This document shows, in pieces, positions 3,569 through 30,853 of a stretch of DNA of 32,000 nucleotides (positions within the stretch are counted from its first letter, which is position 1; each line of letters opens with the position of its first letter). The position numbers and the translations under genes are program-made. The stretch spans positions 1,890,001 to 1,922,000 of the forward strand of contig OY780959.1 of NCBI GenBank assembly GCA_963675915.1. Reading direction: 5' to 3'. Origin of the DNA: Coprobacillaceae bacterium. Its GTDB lineage: Bacteria > Bacillota_I > Bacilli_A > Erysipelotrichales > Coprobacillaceae. The notes under the pieces were generated by a model, which searched no databases, had not been told where the DNA came from, and worked only from the letters and a program-made list of their open reading frames with translations.

Positions 3569-3596
3569 CTCTGTCAGCTCCTTTAAAATCTATAAA

Positions 3597-3623
3597 TAAA
3601 AAACTCAAGTAATTTACTTGAGT
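3597..3623 (-). terminator. Rho-independent terminator ending the tRNA operon
   Basis: On the minus strand: ACTCAAGTA-AAT-TACTTGAGT (9-bp stem) followed by TTTTT. Confidence 0.8.
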
Positions 3624-3635
3624 ATCTTTTTCTAT

Positions 3636-3711
3636 TGGTGACCCGTACGGGATTCGAACCCGTGAATGCATGCGTGAAAGGCATGTGAGTTAACCGTTTC
3701 TCCAACGGGCC
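3636..3711 (-). tRNA. tRNA-Glu (anticodon UUC)
   Basis: The reverse complement reads GGCCCGTTGG...CATGCCTTTCACGCATG...GGTTCGAATCCCGTACGGGTCACCA. Anticodon loop CTTTCAC; CCA encoded. Confidence 0.9.
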
Positions 3712-3714
3712 ACA

Positions 3715-3790
3715 TGGCGCTTGAAGTAGGACTCGAACCTACGACCGCTCGGTTAACAGCCGAGTGCTCTACCAACTGAGCTATTCAAGC
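3715..3790 (-). tRNA. tRNA-Asn (anticodon GUU)
   Basis: Reverse complement GCTTGAATAGCTCAGTTGGTAGAGCACTCGGCTGTTAACCGAG...GGTTCGAGTCC...CCA. Anticodon loop CTGTTAA. Confidence 0.9.
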
Positions 3791-3793
3791 AAT

Positions 3794-3867
3794 TGGAGCG
3801 GGTGATGGGAATCGAACCCACGTAGTCAGCTTGGAAGGCTGAAGTTCTACCATTGAACTACACCCGC
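3794..3867 (-). tRNA. tRNA-Gly (anticodon UCC), copy 3 in transcription order
   Basis: Reverse complement GCGGGTGTAGTTCAATGGTAGAACTTCAGCCTTCCAAGCTGA...GGTTCGATTCCCATCACCCGCTCCA. Anticodon loop CTTCCAA. Confidence 0.9.
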
Positions 3868-3892
3868 AATTTGCGTTTGGTATTAAATATAA

Positions 3893-3966
3893 TGGAGCGG
3901 GTGATGGGAATCGAACCCACGTAGTCAGCTTGGAAGGCTGAAGTTCTACCATTGAACTACACCCGC
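3893..3966 (-). tRNA. tRNA-Gly (anticodon UCC), copy 2
   Basis: Sequence is identical by eye to 3794-3867. Confidence 0.9.
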
Positions 3967-3993
3967 ATATTTGCGTTTGATATTAAATTATAA

Positions 3994-4067
3994 TGGAGCG
4001 GGTGATGGGAATCGAACCCACGTAGTCAGCTTGGAAGGCTGAAGTTCTACCATTGAACTACACCCGC
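3994..4067 (-). tRNA. tRNA-Gly (anticodon UCC), copy 1
   Basis: Sequence is identical by eye to 3794-3867. Confidence 0.9.
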
Positions 4068-4076
4068 ATATTTGAA

Positions 4077-4165
4077 TGGTGCCCAGGGACGGAGTCGAAC
4101 CGTCACGGATTTTAAGGTCCGCAGGATTTTAAGTCCTGTGCGTCTACCAATTTCGCCACCTGGGC
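4077..4165 (-). tRNA. tRNA-Leu (anticodon UAA), long variable arm
   Basis: Reverse complement GCCCAGGTGGCGAAATTGGTAGACGCACAGGACTTAAAATCCTG...GGTTCGACTCCGTCCCTGGGCACCA. Anticodon loop CTTAAAA. Confidence 0.9.
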
Positions 4166-4180
4166 CCTAAAATATATAAA

Positions 4181-4256
4181 TGGTGACCCGCAGGCGACTC
4201 GAACGCCTGACCCTCTGATTAAAAGTCAGATGCTCTACCGACTGAGCTAGCGGGTC
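4181..4256 (-). tRNA. tRNA-Lys (anticodon UUU)
   Basis: Reverse complement GACCCGCTAGCTCAGTCGGTAGAGCATCTGACTTTTAATCAGA...GTTCGAGTCGCCTGCGGGTCACCA. Anticodon loop CTTTTAA. Confidence 0.9.
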
Positions 4257-4261
4257 AAAAA

Positions 4262-4337
4262 TGGCTGGGGTACCTGGATTCGAACCAGGGAAATGACAGA
4301 GTCAAAGTCTGTTGCCTTACCGCTTGGCTATACCCCA
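4262..4337 (-). tRNA. tRNA-Gln (anticodon UUG)
   Basis: Reverse complement TGGGGTATAGCCAAGCGGTAAGGCAACAGACTTTGACTCTGT...GGTTCGAATCCAGGTACCCCAGCCA. Anticodon loop CTTTGAC. Confidence 0.85.
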
Positions 4338-4346
4338 ATAAAAAAA

Positions 4347-4430
4347 TGGTGGAGGAGGGCGGATTCGAACCACCGAACCGAAAGGAACTGAGTTACAGTC
4401 AGCCGCGTTTGGCCACTTCGCTACTCCTCC
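4347..4430 (-). tRNA. tRNA-Tyr (anticodon GUA), long variable arm
   Basis: Reverse complement GGAGGAGTAGCGAAGTGGCCAAACGCGGCTGACTGTAACTCAG...GGTTCGAATCCGCCCTCCTCCACCA. Anticodon loop CTGTAAC. Confidence 0.85.
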
Positions 4431-4435
4431 GTATA

Positions 4436-4511
<76 letters not shown>

Positions 4512-4524
4512 GTAAAAAATAAAA

Positions 4525-4600
4525 TGGTGGGGGTTAACGGGCTCGAACCGCTGACCCTCTGCTTGTAAGGCAGATGCTCTCCCAACTGAGCTAAACCCCC
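4525..4600 (-). tRNA. tRNA-Val (anticodon UAC)
   Basis: Reverse complement GGGGGTTTAGCTCAGTTGGGAGAGCATCTGCCTTACAAGCAGA...GGTTCGAGCCCGTTAACCCCCACCA. Anticodon loop CTTACAA. Confidence 0.9.
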
Positions 4601-4618
4601 GTTTTTTGCTACCCTGAT

Positions 4619-4647
4619 ATATTATCAAACTTTCACTCATTAGTCAA
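4619..4647 (-). promoter_or_regulatory. Sigma-A-type promoter of the tRNA operon
   Basis: Minus strand TTGACT (4647-4642), a 17-nt spacer, then TAATAT (4624-4619), about 15 nt upstream of tRNA-Val. Confidence 0.7.
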
Positions 4648-4998
4648 CAACTTTTTTGAAAGTTTTTGATGACCCGGAACCACTATGCGGAGTTCAATCT
4701 CCGTTCGCATTCCCCTCGGTCAAGGCGCTATATCAATATACACTAGATACTATGGGATTGCAATAGTTTTCGTGAAAAAAATGAATTTTCTTCTTAGCTG
4801 ACATGTTCATCGCCCAGCAGTCCCGTTTTCATAAGATCCAAACACCGGATTCTGAGCAGGAATTCTGCCACTGCTCTATTCAATATATATACACGAAATT
4901 TACCTTTCATTTCTTCAACAATCCAATCACTTTGATTACATGTTACAAATGGGACTCCCATTTTGTCAAAATTTATTCAATTAACTGTATACAATCTC

Positions 4999-5027
4999 TT
5001 GATTCTTGCGAATACTTGGTGTATATT
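4999..5027 (+). promoter_or_regulatory. Candidate promoter of the HisC-family aminotransferase gene
   Basis: TTGATT (4999-5004), a 17-nt spacer, then TATATT (5022-5027). GGAGGG RBS at 5044-5049. Confidence 0.5.
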
Positions 5028-5054
5028 TGAGGAAAGTTCAATGGAGGGTAAATT

Positions 5055-6161: not shown

Positions 6162-6430
6162 ATCGCCATCCGCCAAATAAACGCCCTCTATCCGACAATA
6201 GCCGGCTTTCATCACCTGGTTATCCAAGCATTCAAAACAGCGCTTAAATCCCCTCATTTTAAACAATGATCACCACCCATTCAAAAAGCCATCACCACCA
6301 GCCGCTCTTAGTGCTCAGTCGTTGCGGATTGCCGCCATCCTCATTCACATATATTCCCATATATCAAATTATTGTTGAGTTTCAAGGCTTTTTTTGATAA
6401 AATAAACAAGTAAAAATCAGGAGGATTTAT

Positions 6431-6853
6431 ATGGAATCTATTAAGAAATTTGCTAAGGAAATAAGTATCTTCGGCCTGGTACTGGTAATCTTCATCGGAT
6501 TATTCATCTTTCGTAATTTGACCCACGAGGACGTAACCACAATATCACAGGCTGATGTTACCAATAAAATGGAAGCCGGTGACAGTTTCGCACTTTTCGT
6601 AGGGGATAACAGCGACGCCAATGTTTACGGCTACATCACCGAAGTGGTGGAACCATTCCTTCAAGATCATTCAGGGACTCAAATCTATTTCCTGGACACT
6701 CAAGCCATGGAAAATTCAACAACTTGGATCAAGGAAACTTTTTCAACAACAAACGGCTCACAACCACAATATTTTGTAATTGAAAACGGAGTTGTAGACC
6801 GCACCTATGCCGGTACGGTATCATATATCCGTTTAAATCAATTGTTTGACTGA
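6431..6853 (+). CDS. Small N-terminally membrane-anchored protein, possibly a thioredoxin-like fold without a CxxC
   Basis: 140 aa. One TM segment (ISIFGLVLVIFIGLFIF). The beta-alpha-beta spacing FALFVGDNSDAN...IYFLD...QPQYFVIENG looks Trx-like. GGAGG RBS. Confidence 0.4.
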   Translation: MESIKKFAKEISIFGLVLVIFIGLFIFRNLTHEDVTTISQADVTNKMEAGDSFALFVGDNSDANVYGYITEVVEPFLQDHSGTQIYFLDTQAMENSTTWIKETFSTTNGSQPQYFVIENGVVDRTYAGTVSYIRLNQLFD

Positions 6854-6943: not shown

Positions 6944-8146
6944 TTAGTTGATATCATCCCCACAGAATTCGTGAGTTAGTTTACCCAAATAGCTGATTCC
7001 ATTGACAATTTGTTCTTCAGTCGGAATCGAGAAATTGATTCTTACCGAGCGGCTAGCTTCTGGATTTTCCAGACAGAAGGCACTACCAGGTACAATGGCA
7101 ATATGTTTTTTTGCCGCTGCATCGACAAAATCCTGTAAACTGACATAGTCAGGCAATTCGAAATAAAGGAACATTCCGCCCTCAGGTTCAGCGAAAGTGA
7201 CATCCTCATGGAATGTTTCCTTCATTGTTTTATACATCAAAGCACATTTTTTGGCATATAACGCACTCAGACGGCTGATATGTTCATGCATGTCGGTTTC
7301 TTCCAGGAATTTGGCCATTGTCAGCTGAGTCCAGATCGGAGTTGAACCATCGATCAAACCTTTTTGGACAACCGCTTTTTCAATGATTTCCTTAGCCCCA
7401 CAAAGCAGTGCGCAACGCATTCCCGGTGACACTATTTTTGAAAGTGAAGCCGCATATAATACATGTCCGGTCTTATCAAATGATTTGATTGGAGGTACGT
7501 CCTCACCCAAAGTTCTCAAGTAACCATACGGATTATCCTCAAGAATGATGACATCGTATTTGACAGCCAGATCATAAATCGCTTTTCTGTTTTCAAGCGA
7601 AGTTGTATATCCAGTCGGATTGTTGAAGTTTGGAATTGTGTAGAAGAATTTAGGCTTAGGCTTGCTTGCCATTGCCGCCTCCAATGCTTCCAAATCAACA
7701 CCGTCTTTTCCCATGGCAACTCCTTTGATGATTGCTCCATTAGAAATGAATGACGAGAATGCTCCCGGGAAGGCTGGATCTTCACTCAAAATAACATCGC
7801 CTTCATCAAGGAAAACTTTCGAAGCAATGTATAACCCTTGAGTAGATCCTGATGTAACTAAAATTTCATCAGTATCATCAAGAACATCAAAATCCATATT
7901 AATGAATTTTCTCGCTTGATCGCGAAGCTCATCACGTCCGATACTAGCCCCATATTGGAAAACTTCAGTATCGTATTCTTCAATTACCCTTTTCGAGATA
8001 TCTGCAAGTTTCTTTGACGGAATCGCTTCTGGATCCGGGAAACCTGCTGCGAAAGAAATGAAGCCCTCCCCTTGGGCATTGGTAATTGCTGCTCTGATTT
8101 TATTTGGTTTTGATTTTTTTACTTTTGATGCATATTCAAATGACAT
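6944..8146 (-). CDS. PLP-dependent aminotransferase, class I (ARO8/LysN/2-aminoadipate-type)
   Basis: The track ORF starts at 8194, but AGGAGA plus a 7-nt spacer precedes the ATG at 8146 (MSFEYASK...). Motifs: VTSGSTQGL, IPNFNNPTGYT, ILEDNPYGYLR, ASLSKIVSPGMRCA (PLP lysine). Confidence 0.85.
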   Translation of the reverse strand: MSFEYASKVKKSKPNKIRAAITNAQGEGFISFAAGFPDPEAIPSKKLADISKRVIEEYDTEVFQYGASIGRDELRDQARKFINMDFDVLDDTDEILVTSGSTQGLYIASKVFLDEGDVILSEDPAFPGAFSSFISNGAIIKGVAMGKDGVDLEALEAAMASKPKPKFFYTIPNFNNPTGYTTSLENRKAIYDLAVKYDVIILEDNPYGYLRTLGEDVPPIKSFDKTGHVLYAASLSKIVSPGMRCALLCGAKEIIEKAVVQKGLIDGSTPIWTQLTMAKFLEETDMHEHISRLSALYAKKCALMYKTMKETFHEDVTFAEPEGGMFLYFELPDYVSLQDFVDAAAKKHIAIVPGSAFCLENPEASRSVRINFSIPTEEQIVNGISYLGKLTHEFCGDDIN

Positions 8147-8212
8147 AATATTTTCTCCTGTTATATATATTTCTATTAATGGTATTGAATTCATTCAGCA
8201 GGTCATAATAAA

Positions 8213-8236
8213 AAACCTATGATAGCTCAAAGGTTT
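8213..8236 (-). terminator. Weak terminator-like hairpin about 65 nt upstream of the aminotransferase start
   Basis: On the minus strand, AAACCT pairs with AGGTTT (6 bp, 12-nt loop), followed by TTTATTAT. The stem is AU-rich, so this is tentative. Confidence 0.3.
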
Positions 8237-8367
8237 AAAAATATAAAATTCAATATCGCCGCCACCATTAAATGCGACATGCGACTAAGAAAATTCCCCT
8301 AAAAACCTTACTGTCTGAGTTTTTTTGATATAGATTAGATTGATGAATCAACATCAATCTAAGGATT

Positions 8368-8406
8368 TAAAGTAAATGGTCAAATTATGGCTGACCATTT
8401 ACTTTA
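8368..8406. repeat. Perfect 15-bp inverted repeat (hairpin) with a 9-nt loop
   Basis: TAAAGTAAATGGTCA (8368-8382) and TGACCATTTACTTTA (8392-8406) are exact reverse complements. Confidence 0.9.
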
Positions 8407-8430
8407 TCTCACTTAGTTCCCCCAATATTT

Positions 8431-8888
8431 TTCTTACTTATGGACCAATGTATTTGGCGTATACATCGGCTGGCACCACGTTCGGAATAGGGATAGTTAC
8501 GCCACTACTAGTAAGAAACATAGAGATACAATAATTAAATACTGACACTATACAAGGATGGGTGATTAAATTTAGTACTGTTCCTTTTACCTAGTAACAG
8601 CGGCAGACACGAAGCCCGCAACTATCTGTATGGGATTAGGGCTACCGAGGCGTACAATAGCCCAATACCCATGATTGTAATCGGAATTTCCAATACCCGT
8701 ACCCGACGCCGTAGTGTGTGGAAAGGCGTAGTCGAGTTCAACCCTAGTATTGCTTGTGATAAGTTAAAATCATTACATTAGATTAGTTGTATAAGGATTA
8801 TTTAATAAAAATGGTTAGGTACTTGATATTTTAATCCTTATCACAAATCAACTTTTCACGGTAGTTGGCAGCCAACCGCGACAGTTGA
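8431..8888. ncRNA. Candidate structured noncoding RNA of unknown class (strand unresolved, minus slightly favoured)
   Basis: No ORF of 60 aa or more. The G+C-rich core is 88/180 over 8581-8760. Perfect helices: 8431-8438/8510-8517; 8455-8461/8498-8504; 8630-8634/8668-8672 enclosing 8639-8644/8658-8663; 8706-8710/8725-8729; 8754-8759/8841-8846 enclosing 8792-8800/8832-8840; 8848-8853/8883-8888 enclosing 8864-8868/8872-8876. Confidence 0.35.
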
Positions 8889-8992
8889 GTCAGTCAGATA
8901 AATATGAACCTCGCTTGTTAATATGTCCCTTCTAGCAATTTAATTCCCAATAGCCACATAACAGAAATCCTGGAACCGAGAAGGATTCCCCT

Positions 8993-9685
8993 CTAACCCA
9001 TCTCGATGTTTGTTTTTGCAGTCTTGCGTCCACGTCCCGGTTTCGACAAATATCTTACCAGCAGTGAAAGCGAGAAGTTTACTGTGAAGTAGATCATGAT
9101 AAGCACACCGTATGTGAATACTTTTTCTGGAATGGTCGTATATTGAGCCATAACCGCACGTCCTTGGTAAATCAAATCTGCAATTGAGATCGTTGCCAGG
9201 AATGAAGTATCCTTGATGATTGTTATCAATGTTGACAATAATTGCGGTGTAACCGCTCTAACCGCTTGTGGCAAGACAATGAATGTCAATGTTTGCGGAA
9301 AGTTAAACCCTTGTGATGCTGCAGCTTCATATTGGCCCTTACTGATTGCATTCAGTCCAGATCTCATCGTTTCACAGATGATGGCACTGAAGAAGAACAC
9401 AAACATCAACATGACAGCTGTATATGGCGGCAAGCCAAAACCTTTTGTGATCCCGAAGCGTCCGAATAAAATCCACAGCAGCAACGGTGTATTACGATAA
9501 ATTTCGATAAACATTGTTCCCAAATATGCAATAGCTTTTGGCGCATAGTTGATAACCAAAGCCAACACAGTCCCTAAAAGGAAACTGAAGAAAATTGAAA
9601 GAATCGCAAATTGTAATGTAGTTAATAGCCCGTCTAGAAAATAACTGATATTCCCCGGGGTTAAAACCGTACTAATTAGTTCCAT
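8993..9685 (-). CDS. Polar amino-acid ABC transporter permease (HisM/GlnP family)
   Basis: 230 aa, about 5 TM segments, with the EAA-loop motif YEAAASQGFNFPQTLTFIVLPQAVR. Confidence 0.9.
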   Translation of the reverse strand: MELISTVLTPGNISYFLDGLLTTLQFAILSIFFSFLLGTVLALVINYAPKAIAYLGTMFIEIYRNTPLLLWILFGRFGITKGFGLPPYTAVMLMFVFFFSAIICETMRSGLNAISKGQYEAAASQGFNFPQTLTFIVLPQAVRAVTPQLLSTLITIIKDTSFLATISIADLIYQGRAVMAQYTTIPEKVFTYGVLIMIYFTVNFSLSLLVRYLSKPGRGRKTAKTNIEMG

Positions 9686-9697
9686 ATGCGTTCCCCC

Positions 9698-10417
9698 TTA
9701 AGCCAGACTTTTTTTTTTCAATTTTTTAGACTTTTTAGTTGATGAGTATCCAGAAGCGAATTTTTTCTCCAAGTAACGAGAAAGCAATGTCATTGGATAA
9801 CACATCACGAAATAGATGATTGCCGCAACCATGTATGATGGTCCTGAGAATCCGGTGTAAGCAGTCCAAGAATGGGCTTGATACATCAAATCATGAATTG
9901 CAATTGTTTGCAATACGGCAGTATTCTTAACGATTCCGACAACTTGTGTTGTAATTGGCGGAATGATGATTCTAACAGCTTGAGGCAAAATGATATAACG
10001 CATCGCTTGGACCCTAGTAAACCCTTGCGATGCCGCCGCTTCATTTTGTCCTTTATTGACAGCCTGGATCCCAGATCTGACGATCTCTCCGATGTACGCG
10101 CCGTGGTAGAAGCCAAGTACAACCGAACCGACCCAAAAGCCATCCAGTGCCCGTCCCGCAAGAGATGGGATAATGATGTAATAAATAAAGAATAATAAAA
10201 TCAAGATTGGAGTATTCTGTAACAATTCAACGTAAATTCTTGAAAAGGCCCTGAAGAATAAACTTTCTGTTGTTGCCAAAACCCCAATTAGGACCCCGAA
10301 TACCATCCCGATTATCAAGGCAATTATCGCCGCCCTTAAGCTGACGGCGATAAAAGAATTAATAAATGTCGGAAATTCTTGTATTGCTTGATCGAAGCCC
10401 CTAAAGATTAGGAACAT
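9698..10417 (-). CDS. Polar amino-acid ABC transporter permease (second subunit)
   Basis: 239 aa with EAA loop NEAAASQGFTRVQAMRYIILPQAVR. A paralogue of the adjacent permease. Confidence 0.9.
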   Translation of the reverse strand: MFLIFRGFDQAIQEFPTFINSFIAVSLRAAIIALIIGMVFGVLIGVLATTESLFFRAFSRIYVELLQNTPILILLFFIYYIIIPSLAGRALDGFWVGSVVLGFYHGAYIGEIVRSGIQAVNKGQNEAAASQGFTRVQAMRYIILPQAVRIIIPPITTQVVGIVKNTAVLQTIAIHDLMYQAHSWTAYTGFSGPSYMVAAIIYFVMCYPMTLLSRYLEKKFASGYSSTKKSKKLKKKSLA

Positions 10418-10424
10418 TTAAATC

Positions 10425-11369
10425 CTATTCTTGATCGATATGGAAATAAGGGCCATATTGTTCATCCAAAGTATCTGGTGCTTCTTGTGTAGGGAATCCC
10501 CATGTTTCTAACCATCCAGCGATTGATCCGTCTCCCCAGAATGTACGTACTTCATCTTGAACAAATTCTGTCCATTCTAAATCTTCATCAACTGTACCAT
10601 TGTTATAAACTGTAACGATACCTAATGGTTGAGGTGCGAACATGTCTCCAGCAGCTGTTTCAGCGAAGATTTCCAATGTATCATTTAAGTAAGATTTCAA
10701 GTAAGTGTAGTCTACACACCATCCATCAACGATTCCTGAATCTAATGCGATCAAGATTTCATCAGTAGTTGAGTATTCCATGATTTCAATATGTTCATCA
10801 ACTTGTTCTTGAGTCCATCCTAGTTCAGCAATAGCATATTCATCAGTTAACGCAGCTCCAGAAGTTGTTCCTAAACCGATTGCGATTTTAACTGGTTCAT
10901 CAGAATCCAAGAAGTCCATAACCCCACCTGGGTATACACCTTTTTTAGTCATTACTGAAACCCCATCATTGAAGTAAGCTGAAGAACAGTTCCATTGCTC
11001 TGCACGTTTAGGAGTATCTGTATAAGATGCAGCAACCATATCGATTGATCCTTCATCCAGCATAGATACACGAGTTTGTGCGTTTACTTTTGTATAAACT
11101 ACTTCGATTGCTCCGTCTTCCAGACCGTTTGCAGCTTCAATATCATCAGCGATACGTTCACTCAAATCAACCTCGAAACCTTCTAATTCCTTAGTAGCAG
11201 TGTTTTCTAATGCGAAACCGATTTTGTCAGTTGAAATCCCGACATTCAACTCGCCTGTTTCAATGATTCTTTCCATTACTGTCATTCCACTTGTGTCCGC
11301 CCCTGAACTACAACCGGTTAATAACATCGATGCTAACAATAACGTACTTCCTACTTTTCTTGAAATCAT
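10425..11369 (-). CDS. Amino-acid ABC transporter substrate-binding lipoprotein (family 3 SBP)
   Basis: 314 aa. Signal peptide with lipobox LLTGCSS. Acidic mature domain. Sits inside the ABC operon. Confidence 0.8.
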   Translation of the reverse strand: MISRKVGSTLLLASMLLTGCSSGADTSGMTVMERIIETGELNVGISTDKIGFALENTATKELEGFEVDLSERIADDIEAANGLEDGAIEVVYTKVNAQTRVSMLDEGSIDMVAASYTDTPKRAEQWNCSSAYFNDGVSVMTKKGVYPGGVMDFLDSDEPVKIAIGLGTTSGAALTDEYAIAELGWTQEQVDEHIEIMEYSTTDEILIALDSGIVDGWCVDYTYLKSYLNDTLEIFAETAAGDMFAPQPLGIVTVYNNGTVDEDLEWTEFVQDEVRTFWGDGSIAGWLETWGFPTQEAPDTLDEQYGPYFHIDQE

Positions 11370-11392: not shown

Positions 11393-12118
11393 TTAGTGTC
11401 TTATAATTTTTCCTAAGAAATCCTTAGCGCGATCAGTTTGGGGATTATCGAAGAATTCTGTTGGAGTTCCTTCTTCTACAATCATTCCCTCATCCATAAA
11501 TACTACTCTATCAGCTACAGCTTTGGCGAATCCCATTTCATGGGTTACACAAATCATTGTGATATTTTCTTTAGCCAATTCAACCATAACATCCAATACT
11601 TCCTGAACCATTTCCGGGTCTAATGCACTGGTAGGTTCATCGAATAAGATAATTTTACTTTTTGTACATAACGCTCTAGCGATTGCAACCCTTTGTTGCT
11701 GTCCTCCGGACAACTCTTCAGGGTAAGCTTGCTCTTTGCCTTTGAGCCCAACTCTTTCCAATGTTTGCATCGCCAATTCGTCAGCGTCCCATTTGCTAAC
11801 TCCATGCAACTTGATTGGTGCCAATGTCAAGTTTTCTAAAACCGTTAAATGCGGATACAGATTGAACTGTTGGAAAACCATCGAGACGTTGTCCCGGACC
11901 ACCTTGGTTTTGTTCTTTTTGGTGACTTTTTCATCACCGATAGTAATTTGCCCTGATGTCGGTTCTTCTAAGAAGTTAATGCAACGTATAGTAGTTGATT
12001 TACCCGAACCAGACGGACCAAGAATAACTAATTTCTCGCCTTCAGCAACATTTAAATTCACATCTTTTAACACGTGAGCGTCACCGAAGAACTTATTGAT
12101 ATTCTCTAGTTGAATCAT
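11393..12118 (-). CDS. Amino-acid ABC transporter ATP-binding protein (GlnQ-like)
   Basis: 241 aa. Walker [10 protein letters not shown], signature [15 protein letters not shown], Walker [12 protein letters not shown]. Confidence 0.95.
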
Positions 12119-12150
12119 TTAACCACCTGCTCTCTTTTGTTTATGGCTAT

Positions 12151-12179
12151 ATATTAGCAAAGCAAAACCACCTTGTCAA
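12151..12179 (-). promoter_or_regulatory. Near-consensus sigma-A promoter of the amino-acid ABC operon
   Basis: Minus strand TTGACA (12179-12174), a 17-nt spacer, then TAATAT (12156-12151). Confidence 0.7.
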
Positions 12180-12409
12180 TAAGAAATTATTATTATAATA
12201 AGATATTTTCTTTATAAATGTGTTATTACCACAATTATATAAGAAATGGGTATTAAAGTGGCCAAAAAGGGACTGATATCATAGTTTTTGCTATCAGAAA
12301 TTACCTTTTTTTATTATTAATTATCATTTTTTTACAATCTTTAATAAATTTTGATAATTTTTTTTTACAATTTATTGCCTCGGTTAAAAAAACTGTTTTT
12401 TCTTTAAAA

Positions 12410-12444
12410 TTTAAAAGCACCCCGATCCCAAAGGACCTGGATGC
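12410..12444 (-). terminator. Rho-independent terminator after the PanE-like gene
   Basis: Minus strand GCATCC-A-GGTCC-TTTG-GGATC-G-GGGTGC two-tier stem followed by TTTTAAATTTT. Confidence 0.6.
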
Positions 12445-12469
12445 CTGATTTTTCAATCATATGATATGT

Positions 12470-30571: not shown

Positions 30572-30647
30572 TGGTGGAGCCTAGCGGGATCGAACCGCTG
30601 ACCCCCTGCGTGCAAGGCAAGTGCTCTCCCAGCTGAGCTAAGGCCCC
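30572..30647 (-). tRNA. tRNA-Ala (anticodon UGC)
   Basis: Reverse complement GGGGCCTTAGCTCAGCTGGGAGAGCACTTGCCTTGCACGCAGG...GGTTCGATCCCGCTAGGCTCCACCA. G3-U70 is present. Anticodon loop CTTGCAC. Confidence 0.9.
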
Positions 30648-30671
30648 AAAACAATAATAAATATTAAATTA

Positions 30672-30748
<77 letters not shown>

Positions 30749-30776
30749 ATAATTTATATATTAAGCAAACAATTAA

Positions 30777-30853
<77 letters not shown>

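Follow-up and report, generated by a model that had tools for sequence, protein, structure and literature searches.

The aspC motif is a three-stem junction with a further stem that directly precedes the start codon of an aminotransferase gene; few of its nucleotides are conserved, and it is widespread in environmental samples (SRC-45-1). OLE, ROOL and GOLLD are structured RNAs of several hundred nucleotides (nt) from Bacillota that lie within an operon, contain conserved unpaired blocks and have no obvious terminator or promoter of their own (established background; PMC12286853). T-box RNAs are long structured leaders of Bacillota found before genes for amino-acid metabolism or transport. EAR (eps-associated RNA) is an operon-internal processive antitermination element of Bacillus. 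Here, we describe a candidate RNA that resembles each of these in part and that was found in a stretch of 32,000 nt from a Coprobacillaceae bacterium (assembly GCA_963675915.1, contig OY780959.1, positions 1,890,001 to 1,922,000; this stretch is referred to as the window, and positions are counted from its first letter). The candidate lies in the 846-nt gap at 8147-8992, between two minus-strand genes. The upstream border is the stop codon TAG (8993-8995, minus strand) of the last permease gene of an ATP-binding cassette (ABC) transporter operon, and downstream follows the gene of a pyridoxal phosphate (PLP) aminotransferase. An earlier, sequence-only reading had proposed that the gap holds a large structured RNA of unknown class. 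Comparison with relatives bears out a conserved, structured RNA on the minus strand, but one that is smaller, is placed differently than the gap as a whole implies and is likelier to be an operon-internal, cis-acting leader than a free non-coding RNA (ncRNA). It is very probable that a selected RNA-level structure exists in its core (8467-8669).

Like all candidate RNAs, the element has to be set against the families already on record. A scan of the whole window against Rfam 15 at gathering level returned only tRNAs elsewhere, and at E <= 10 the region 8050-9100 gave only chance matches to small nucleolar RNAs, microRNAs and small RNAs. Matches in the homologous gaps of two relatives (L003 and L025, described below) were likewise due to chance, and seven whole loci had no gathering-level match. 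No Rfam 15 match was found to OLE, ROOL, GOLLD, HEARO or raiA even at E <= 10, nor to T-box, riboswitches, RNase P, tmRNA, SRP, 6S or group I/II introns, in agreement with the earlier view that the gap belongs to no recognised class. The aspC motif shares with our element its place before a putative amino-acid aminotransferase gene, the presence of multiple stems, a proposed amino-acid-related sensing role and the lack of a validated ligand. The element is unlike it in that the core ends 80-319 nt before the ATG, has near-invariant blocks of 21-25 nt and is seen in only five lineages; the motif as published differs from it in position, conservation and abundance. In its proposed way of working, the element comes closest to such orphan riboswitch candidates for amino-acid genes. 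No aspC-named match appeared in the Rfam scans, and the motif's presence in Rfam 15 is unconfirmed. In contrast to OLE, ROOL and GOLLD, the element has a different gene neighbourhood, does not adjoin tRNA or prophage genes, is strongly conserved over only about 205 nt and has a far narrower distribution; its likeness to OLE is confined to being embedded in an operon. Viewed as an ornate ncRNA, it offers about 525 nt that are positionally homologous, with strong structure in the 205-nt core only, and the same two genes always adjoin it.

A T-box leader was rejected, as every tested feature is missing: none of the five gaps contains the T-box sequence GGUGGNACC, there is no terminator and no Rfam T-box match, and the AGAGA-type loop of Stem I is absent from four of the five gaps, the fifth (L030) having one stray AGAGA in its linker. 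EAR, too, is a structured RNA between genes of a long operon and affects downstream expression in cis, but our element has no Rfam match to it and, in the relatives, no terminators follow that would have to be read through; to assign it a part in antitermination would be pure conjecture. We file the element as a candidate new RNA family, belonging to no named one, among the conserved structured intergenic or leader RNAs of unknown ligand. If real, it adds a family missing from Rfam 15 and from the literature consulted, comes from a poorly studied, uncultured branch of the Erysipelotrichaceae and is an example of a complex RNA located between cistrons and not at the start of an operon. Its immediate importance is limited by its narrow distribution and by the missing mechanism.

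Homologues and structure of the core

Homologues were gathered by a synteny walk using the aminotransferase and the adjacent permease. The earlier reading had named homologues beyond near-identical strains as a check, and these were found: four further distinct lineages carry a homologous element at the same permease-aminotransferase junction. Judged by these sequences, the element is real outside near-identical strains, its five known carriers being related, uncultured, gut-type Erysipelotrichaceae. The flanking proteins of the four lineages are 68-70% (permease) and 73-74% (aminotransferase) identical to those of the window, and the nearest named relatives by the aminotransferase are Erysipelotrichaceae. 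Their gaps measure 569 nt (L002), 605 nt (L003), 598 nt (L030, the Erysipelotrichaceae metagenome-assembled genome GCA_028698185.1) and about 617 nt (L025, Logan SRR11702756, the most divergent homologue); the gaps of L031-L037 differ from that of L030 by at most 2 nt. A search with nhmmer found one copy per locus. In L025:3001-5505, the second permease is called as a 193-aa fragment and the aminotransferase as pieces of 179 and 158 aa, with the RNA core intact; the broken genes are either assembly frameshifts or pseudogenes.

As far as seen within the searched collections, the element appears to be confined to one small clade. In L004 and L006, where the aminotransferase is about 50% identical, the operon is divergent, with about 190 nt between and no element. 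Permease homologues of at most 62% identity (L026, L038) also lack it and, among L004-L007, L026-L029 and L038 as a whole, the element is absent or the contig is too short. At L004:3808-4000 and L006:3815-4000, this spacer of about 190 nt is common to the aminotransferase gene and the ABC operon, which are transcribed away from each other, an arrangement suggesting that the two functions stay linked across rearrangements. Exact-pattern scans with the invariant block (an 18-19-mer) gave no match in viral contigs, seven in JGI metagenome contigs and ten in GTDB representatives, all of them unrelated chance matches. The scans exclude exact-block copies only, because the source genome is outside the genome collection and the L030 genome has a variant block.

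In the five-sequence alignment, short near-invariant blocks follow one another in a fixed order with variable spacing, and the indels are not multiples of three. Helices P1, P2 and P3 (Table 1) were predicted by RNAalifold from a sequence-only alignment without manual input. The consensus energy of the core (MAFFT alignment, RNAalifold) is -36.7 in the sense direction against -9.9 +/- 3.0 for column shuffles (z = -8.9); the antisense consensus structure gives z = -4.95. P1, with arms GGGCUAUUG and CGGUAGCCC around the loop UACGCCU in the window model, matches the relatives at 23 of 25 nt. Over its 11 pairs, 96% of cells are paired, three pairs are changed on both sides, and the wobbles are G.U on the minus strand only. 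For instance, L025 has a G-C in place of an A-U, and the closing pairs are U-A or C-G. Six of the 11 pairs of P2 are changed on both sides, including a change from AUAG/CUAU to GUGG/CCAC in L025. P3 has an invariant ACU.G / C.AGU centre with covarying pairs around it, four of them changed on both sides; its register in the window was set by hand. At the position of P4, a helix is found in all five sequences with unrelated letters each time, so that it is aligned by position only, and helices P4' and P5 occur in the relatives only. Block 2, in the apical loop, is identical in the window, L002 and L003, and L030 and L025 each differ at 4 of its 21 positions.

The loop of P1 is also a likely partner in a pseudoknot with the 3' tail, to go by the aligned sequences. 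Its proposed partner is a segment 11-13 nt 3' of P2, and in the relatives ACGCCU can pair with AGGCGU. L025 changes ACGCC/GGCGU to GGCGCC/GGCGCC, an A-U to G-C change, and a C-to-U change in the loop of L030 yields a G.U pair. The weakest parts of the model are the register of P3 and P4 in the window and the 4-bp pseudoknot there.

A structural alignment of the five sequences (A6) was fitted by hand. Over all helices, pairing holds in 90.7% of 289 cells, and among the 67 pairs 25 are changed on both sides; on each of the five measures, 0 of 500 shuffles attain the observed value, and slid-partner controls reach 30-48% of cells paired and 5-8 pairs changed on both sides. For the sequence-anchored set (P1, the pseudoknot, P2 and P3), the values are 90.6% of 192 cells and 15 of 40 pairs, with 0 of 500 shuffles on four of the measures and 29 of 500 on the remaining one, further pair types, and 33-47% of cells and 1-4 pairs in the slid-partner controls. 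G.U cells number 40 and A.C cells 7, an excess which shows, at the level of sequence comparison, that the strand of the element is the gene-sense one, minus in the window. The alignments likewise show that helices P1-P3 covary. A statistically valid covariation test (R-scape) is impossible with only five sequences.

Conservation of this kind can also arise at the DNA level, through an internal promoter, an operator or other regulator sites, or as neutral residual similarity with incidental helices. P1, being nearly palindromic, could serve a DNA-binding protein that acts as a dimer, and in a narrow clade some of the conservation may be phylogenetic inertia. However, flanking spacers that have diverged equally can for the most part not be aligned, apart from the operon promoter, the G.U excess is strand-specific, the strands of P2 and P3 carry compensatory changes while lying 100-130 nt apart, and L003 has no promoter consensus. 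Taken as an account of the core, DNA-level or neutral conservation seems to us highly doubtful.

Table 1 Features of the permease-aminotransferase gap and of the adjoining operon. Positions refer to the window; bp, base pairs; aa, amino acids.
Feature	Position	Strand	Remarks
Core domain, about 205 nt	8467-8669	-	203-210 nt in five of five homologues (MAFFT alignments A4, A5)
Hairpin P1	8637-8665	-	UUGGGCUAUUG-UACGCCU-CGGUAGCCCUA; loop L1 of 7 nt at 8648-8654
Pseudoknot 3' strand (proposed)	8472-8478	-	partner L1; in the window GGUG with CGCC, 4 bp
P2 5' strand	8617-8627	-	AGAUAGUUGCG; pairs with 8491-8501; RNAalifold on sequence-only alignment
P2 3' strand	8491-8501	-	CGUAACUAUCC; closes the arm
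P3 5' strand	8590-8600	-	CUGUUACUAGG; pairs with 8502-8512
P3 3' strand	8502-8512	-	ACUAGUAGUGG
P4 5' strand	8579-8586	-	AAGGAACA; pairs with 8513-8520
P4 3' strand	8513-8520	-	UGUUUCUU
Block 2	8552-8572	-	AAUUUAAUCACCCAUCCUUGU; C/U-rich 21-mer, near-invariant, apical loop of the P2-P4 arm
Insert between P2 and P3, 16 nt	8601-8616	-	window-specific, absent from relatives; can form a small GC hairpin
5' part, 323 nt	8670-8992	-	loosely conserved
Core-aminotransferase linker	8147-8466	-	320 nt, against 80-116 nt in relatives
Shine-Dalgarno AGGAGA and ATG	8154-8159 and 8144-8146	-	start region of the PLP aminotransferase gene, which the RNA presumably regulates
PLP aminotransferase, 400 aa	6944-8146	-	good AGGAGA ribosome-binding site
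Permeases	9698-10417 and 8993-9685	-	polar-amino-acid ABC operon
Binding protein	10425-11369	-	polar-amino-acid ABC operon
ATPase	11393-12118	-	polar-amino-acid ABC operon
Operon promoter	12147-12201	-	-35 TTGACA, -10 TAATAT, with palindromic operator TTATTATAATAATAA; conserved across relatives (alignment A7)

Composition and variable parts of the gap

The open reading frames (ORFs) that start within the gap are short, the longest encoding 54 and 52 aa, and the longest stop-free frame has 71 codons; the earlier statement that no ORF reaches 60 aa holds. Two further explanations would make the gap a decayed protein gene or the remnant of a mobile element, such as an insertion sequence (IS) end, a group II intron fragment or a miniature inverted-repeat transposable element. 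The window-specific 3' part, with its perfect 15- and 11-bp hairpins, does look like an insertion. Against a remnant of either kind, the position of the element is conserved across lineages. Every frame of the core has 1-9 stops in five of five homologues, and the eight longest six-frame peptides have no Pfam match at E <= 1. The gap has no blastn match in plasmid and phage collections, is not repeated elsewhere in the window or in the loci, and matches no intron- or IS-associated Rfam family. A decayed gene, which the sequence-only reading had named as its own possible undoing, was rejected on the closed frames (all six in the five homologues) and the absent Pfam match. A repeat or mobile element was rejected for the core, which is single-copy. 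Explanations of this group deserve hardly any credence.

The G+C content is 40.9% for the whole window, 36.5% for the whole gap and 43.8% for the conserved core, which is about the coding level. Another spacer, at 12119-12469, has 25.6%, and the middle of the gap is G+C-rich only in comparison with other spacers. The counts on which a G+C-rich island had been proposed are exact (88 of 180 in 8581-8760 and 6 of 60 in 12301-12360), but with the window at 41% and the core at 44% the signature of such an island in an AT-rich genome is weak. The gap had also been called the longest non-coding one in the window; it is the longest without an annotated gene or RNA, but the gap at 3569-5054, occupied by 11 tRNA genes, is longer.

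Compared with dinucleotide shuffles, the gap has an excess of perfect inverted repeats, with four of at least 10 bp (0.56 expected) and six of at least 9 bp (2.0 expected). Folding of the whole gap gives -238.5 kcal/mol on the minus strand (z = -6.2) and -191.3 kcal/mol on the plus strand (z = -4.3), again relative to dinucleotide shuffles. The perfect helices are located at 8368-8406, 8335-8362 and 8754-8846, in parts that are poorly conserved or window-specific. Because these hairpins fall outside the conserved core, the structured look of the gap can be put down mostly to lineage-specific helices. Of the helices first picked out by eye, the enrichment stands, but the 15- and 11-bp ones are lineage-specific, the two of 10 bp fall within the variable 5' part and none lies in the core. 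There is a lesson in this, in that the two longest, most eye-catching perfect hairpins are lineage-specific, and a thermodynamically unremarkable core, the presumed functional part, becomes visible only by comparing relatives.

The idea of one 846-nt unit has accordingly to be given up: the robust structure is the core of about 205 nt, the 5' part of about 320 nt is loose, and about 220 nt of the 3' part have no counterpart. Motifs of the 5' part common to the relatives include GGGAAYC right after the permease stop and AAGGGA within 8920-8933. A long hairpin has its arms at 8791-8800 and 8832-8841, and its loop AUCAAGUACC (8818-8827) corresponds to AUCCAGCACC in the relatives. For the 5' part, the consensus structure gives only a weak signal, with z = -2.4 in the sense and +0.72 in the antisense direction for five sequences, and z = -3.5 and +1.1, respectively, for L002, L003 and L030 only. 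No BLAST-level similarity to L025 or L030 was found in the 5' part. The segment UUGUGAUAAGGAUUA (8832-8846, minus strand) pairs perfectly with either 8791-8800 or 8754-8763, which gives two mutually exclusive 10-bp helices.

In the linker, the stretch of about 220 nt without a counterpart in the relatives has no other copy within the window. The perfect hairpins of the linker span 8368-8406 (15 bp) and 8335-8362 (11 bp), and a further hairpin at 8445-8469 has the loop ACGCCAA, which repeats the ACGCC of the P1 loop. A terminator-like AAACCU..AGGUUU followed by U6 is found at 8205-8236, and there are promoter-like sites as well. The extra segment could be an insertion that gives the aminotransferase gene its own promoter, and the coupling between the core and the gene may have been altered in the lineage of the window by this inserted 3' segment.

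Transcription and possible function

No terminator consensus was found in any of the five gaps, and L002, L003 and L030 have no U-run of at least 6. Inside the gaps there is no promoter conserved across lineages, unlike the strongly conserved operon promoter. Given that the gaps of the relatives have neither, the RNA is probably transcribed with the operon, and the minus-strand read-through from the ABC operon that had been suggested earlier is plausible. That suggestion leaned on a weak terminator at 8966-8987; a hairpin of 7 bp with a 12-nt loop does exist there, but it has no U-run and falls outside the terminator consensus. The operon promoter is the likely source of the transcript carrying the RNA, and the simplest reading of the gene order, inferred from sequence, is a single transcript that runs from the ATPase through the binding protein, the permeases and the RNA to the aminotransferase. 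A perfect 15-bp palindrome precedes this promoter (TTATTATAATAATAA at 12187-12201 in the window, TTATCATAATGATAA in the relatives). Both of its half-sites are changed symmetrically between the window and the relatives, and it is probably the operator of a DNA-binding regulator.

With somewhat less than even confidence, we read the core as a cis-acting, riboswitch-like, operon-internal leader of the aminotransferase gene. In such a scheme, the sigma-A promoter and palindromic operator located around 12150-12200 would drive the ATPase, the binding protein and the two permeases, and transcription would continue, with no terminator, through the RNA into the aminotransferase gene. The core would bind, as a sensor, either a protein or a small molecule with a link to the amino acid being imported; likely signals would be the transported amino acid itself or its oxo-acid, or else a protein. 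The folded or unfolded state of the core would then set the amount of aminotransferase relative to the transporter. A sensor acting in cis fits a core of constant size that ends 80-116 nt before the start codon in all four relatives and that is found only where the aminotransferase follows the transporter genes. Position and synteny also favour a cis leader over a free-standing large ncRNA of the OLE, ROOL or GOLLD type. One of the features expected of a riboswitch, a conserved, structured, aptamer-like domain on the sense strand in the leader of a gene, is found in the core. It is possible, though we hold it only tentatively, that the core and its 5' extension of about 320 nt make up the aptamer part of an undescribed class of riboswitch or of other ligand- or factor-sensing RNA, with the 21-mer of block 2 and the loop-to-tail pseudoknot as its binding pocket, or else a new class of operon-embedded ncRNA with seed loops that resemble an anti-Shine-Dalgarno (anti-SD) sequence. 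Orphan riboswitch candidates tied to both amino-acid transport and transamination are rare, and such candidates have historically pointed to unrecognised metabolites or control logic.

Several observations weigh against a cis-acting leader. A conserved expression platform was not found, and the gaps contain no terminator/antiterminator pair. Segments complementary to the SD sequence are present (9 bp with P3a in L002, 8 bp with P5b in L003 and L030, and 6 bp with P3a in the window), but they differ by lineage, the shorter ones are at chance level, and none is convincing in L025 or the window. The core of the window lies 319 nt from the ATG, its pseudoknot of only 4 bp is weak, and its folding as a single sequence is ordinary (z = -0.58). 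For a riboswitch, a 5' part of some 320 nt would be of unusual length. Finally, the comparison covers only five distinct sequences from one narrow clade, and the pair counts come from a hand-fitted alignment.

The SD region of the aminotransferase gene, AACCAGUUCAGGAGGCGU (with GGCAU in L030), is nearly identical in L002:4983-5000, L003:4983-5000 and L030:3774-3791. The version in L002 and L003 includes AGGCGU, which duplicates the 3' strand of the pseudoknot and could pair with ACGCCUC of the P1 loop; the region further includes AACCAGU, similar to the 5' strand of P5. The loop ACGCCUC can pair with GAGGCGU of the SD region in L002, L003 and L030. Complementarity of this kind could be an SD-sequestering switch, but L025 and the window show no sign of it. 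A role of the P1 loop in sequestration was set aside as a general mechanism, being limited to L002, L003 and L030 and possibly coincidental. Block 2 also seems, by eye, able to pair with an ACAAGGA motif of the 5' part in L002 and L003; this pairing is not claimed, as L030 and L025 show no compensatory change.

The main alternative is an ncRNA of about 500 nt that acts in trans, either free-standing or released by processing, and that, like OLE, would have no more than its location in common with the operon. The seeds or protein sites of such an RNA would include the C/U-rich block 2 AAUCACCCAUCCUU, the P1 loop ACGCCUC and CCAUCCUAAUCC in the 5' part of the relatives, directed at purine-rich ribosome-binding sites. 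The large size and the several near-invariant, unpaired C/U-rich blocks agree with this, as does the failure to find a conserved expression platform. In the window, the additional 220 nt or so, the terminator-like hairpin with its U6 (8205-8236) and the promoter-like sites would fit a separately promoted gene. However, neither L002 nor L003 has a promoter or terminator consensus flanking the element, synteny is strict, with the distance of 80-116 nt to the aminotransferase start kept in four lineages, and the single-copy element is absent where the gene order differs. A trans-acting RNA is in our view unlikely. Block 2 may resemble the 3' end of 16S rRNA, AUCACCUCCUU, with a CA insertion, which is a possible lead.

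An intercistronic element for processing, stability or insulation could also uncouple the stoichiometry of the two gene products without any sensing, through RNase cleavage or protection. The location inside an operon with no terminator and the many stable hairpins, the lineage-specific ones included, are what such an element would show. Simple stabilisers, however, do not need an invariant 21-nt loop, a pseudoknot or a constant 205-nt architecture with compensatory changes. This explanation is improbable, and a leader that acts in cis by sensing remains the reading we prefer.

Other features of the window

Two arrays of tRNA genes are found on the minus strand, with 11 genes at 3639-4600 and three at 30575-30853. 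Near the aminotransferase gene, a 140-aa ORF at 6431-6853 on the plus strand matches nothing in Pfam or NCBIfam, and its synteny is kept in all relatives. Upstream of this ORF, about 75 nt at 6348-6424 are conserved, with 76-77% identity to L025 and L030; this conservation may reflect a true ORF start further upstream, or a conserved leader.

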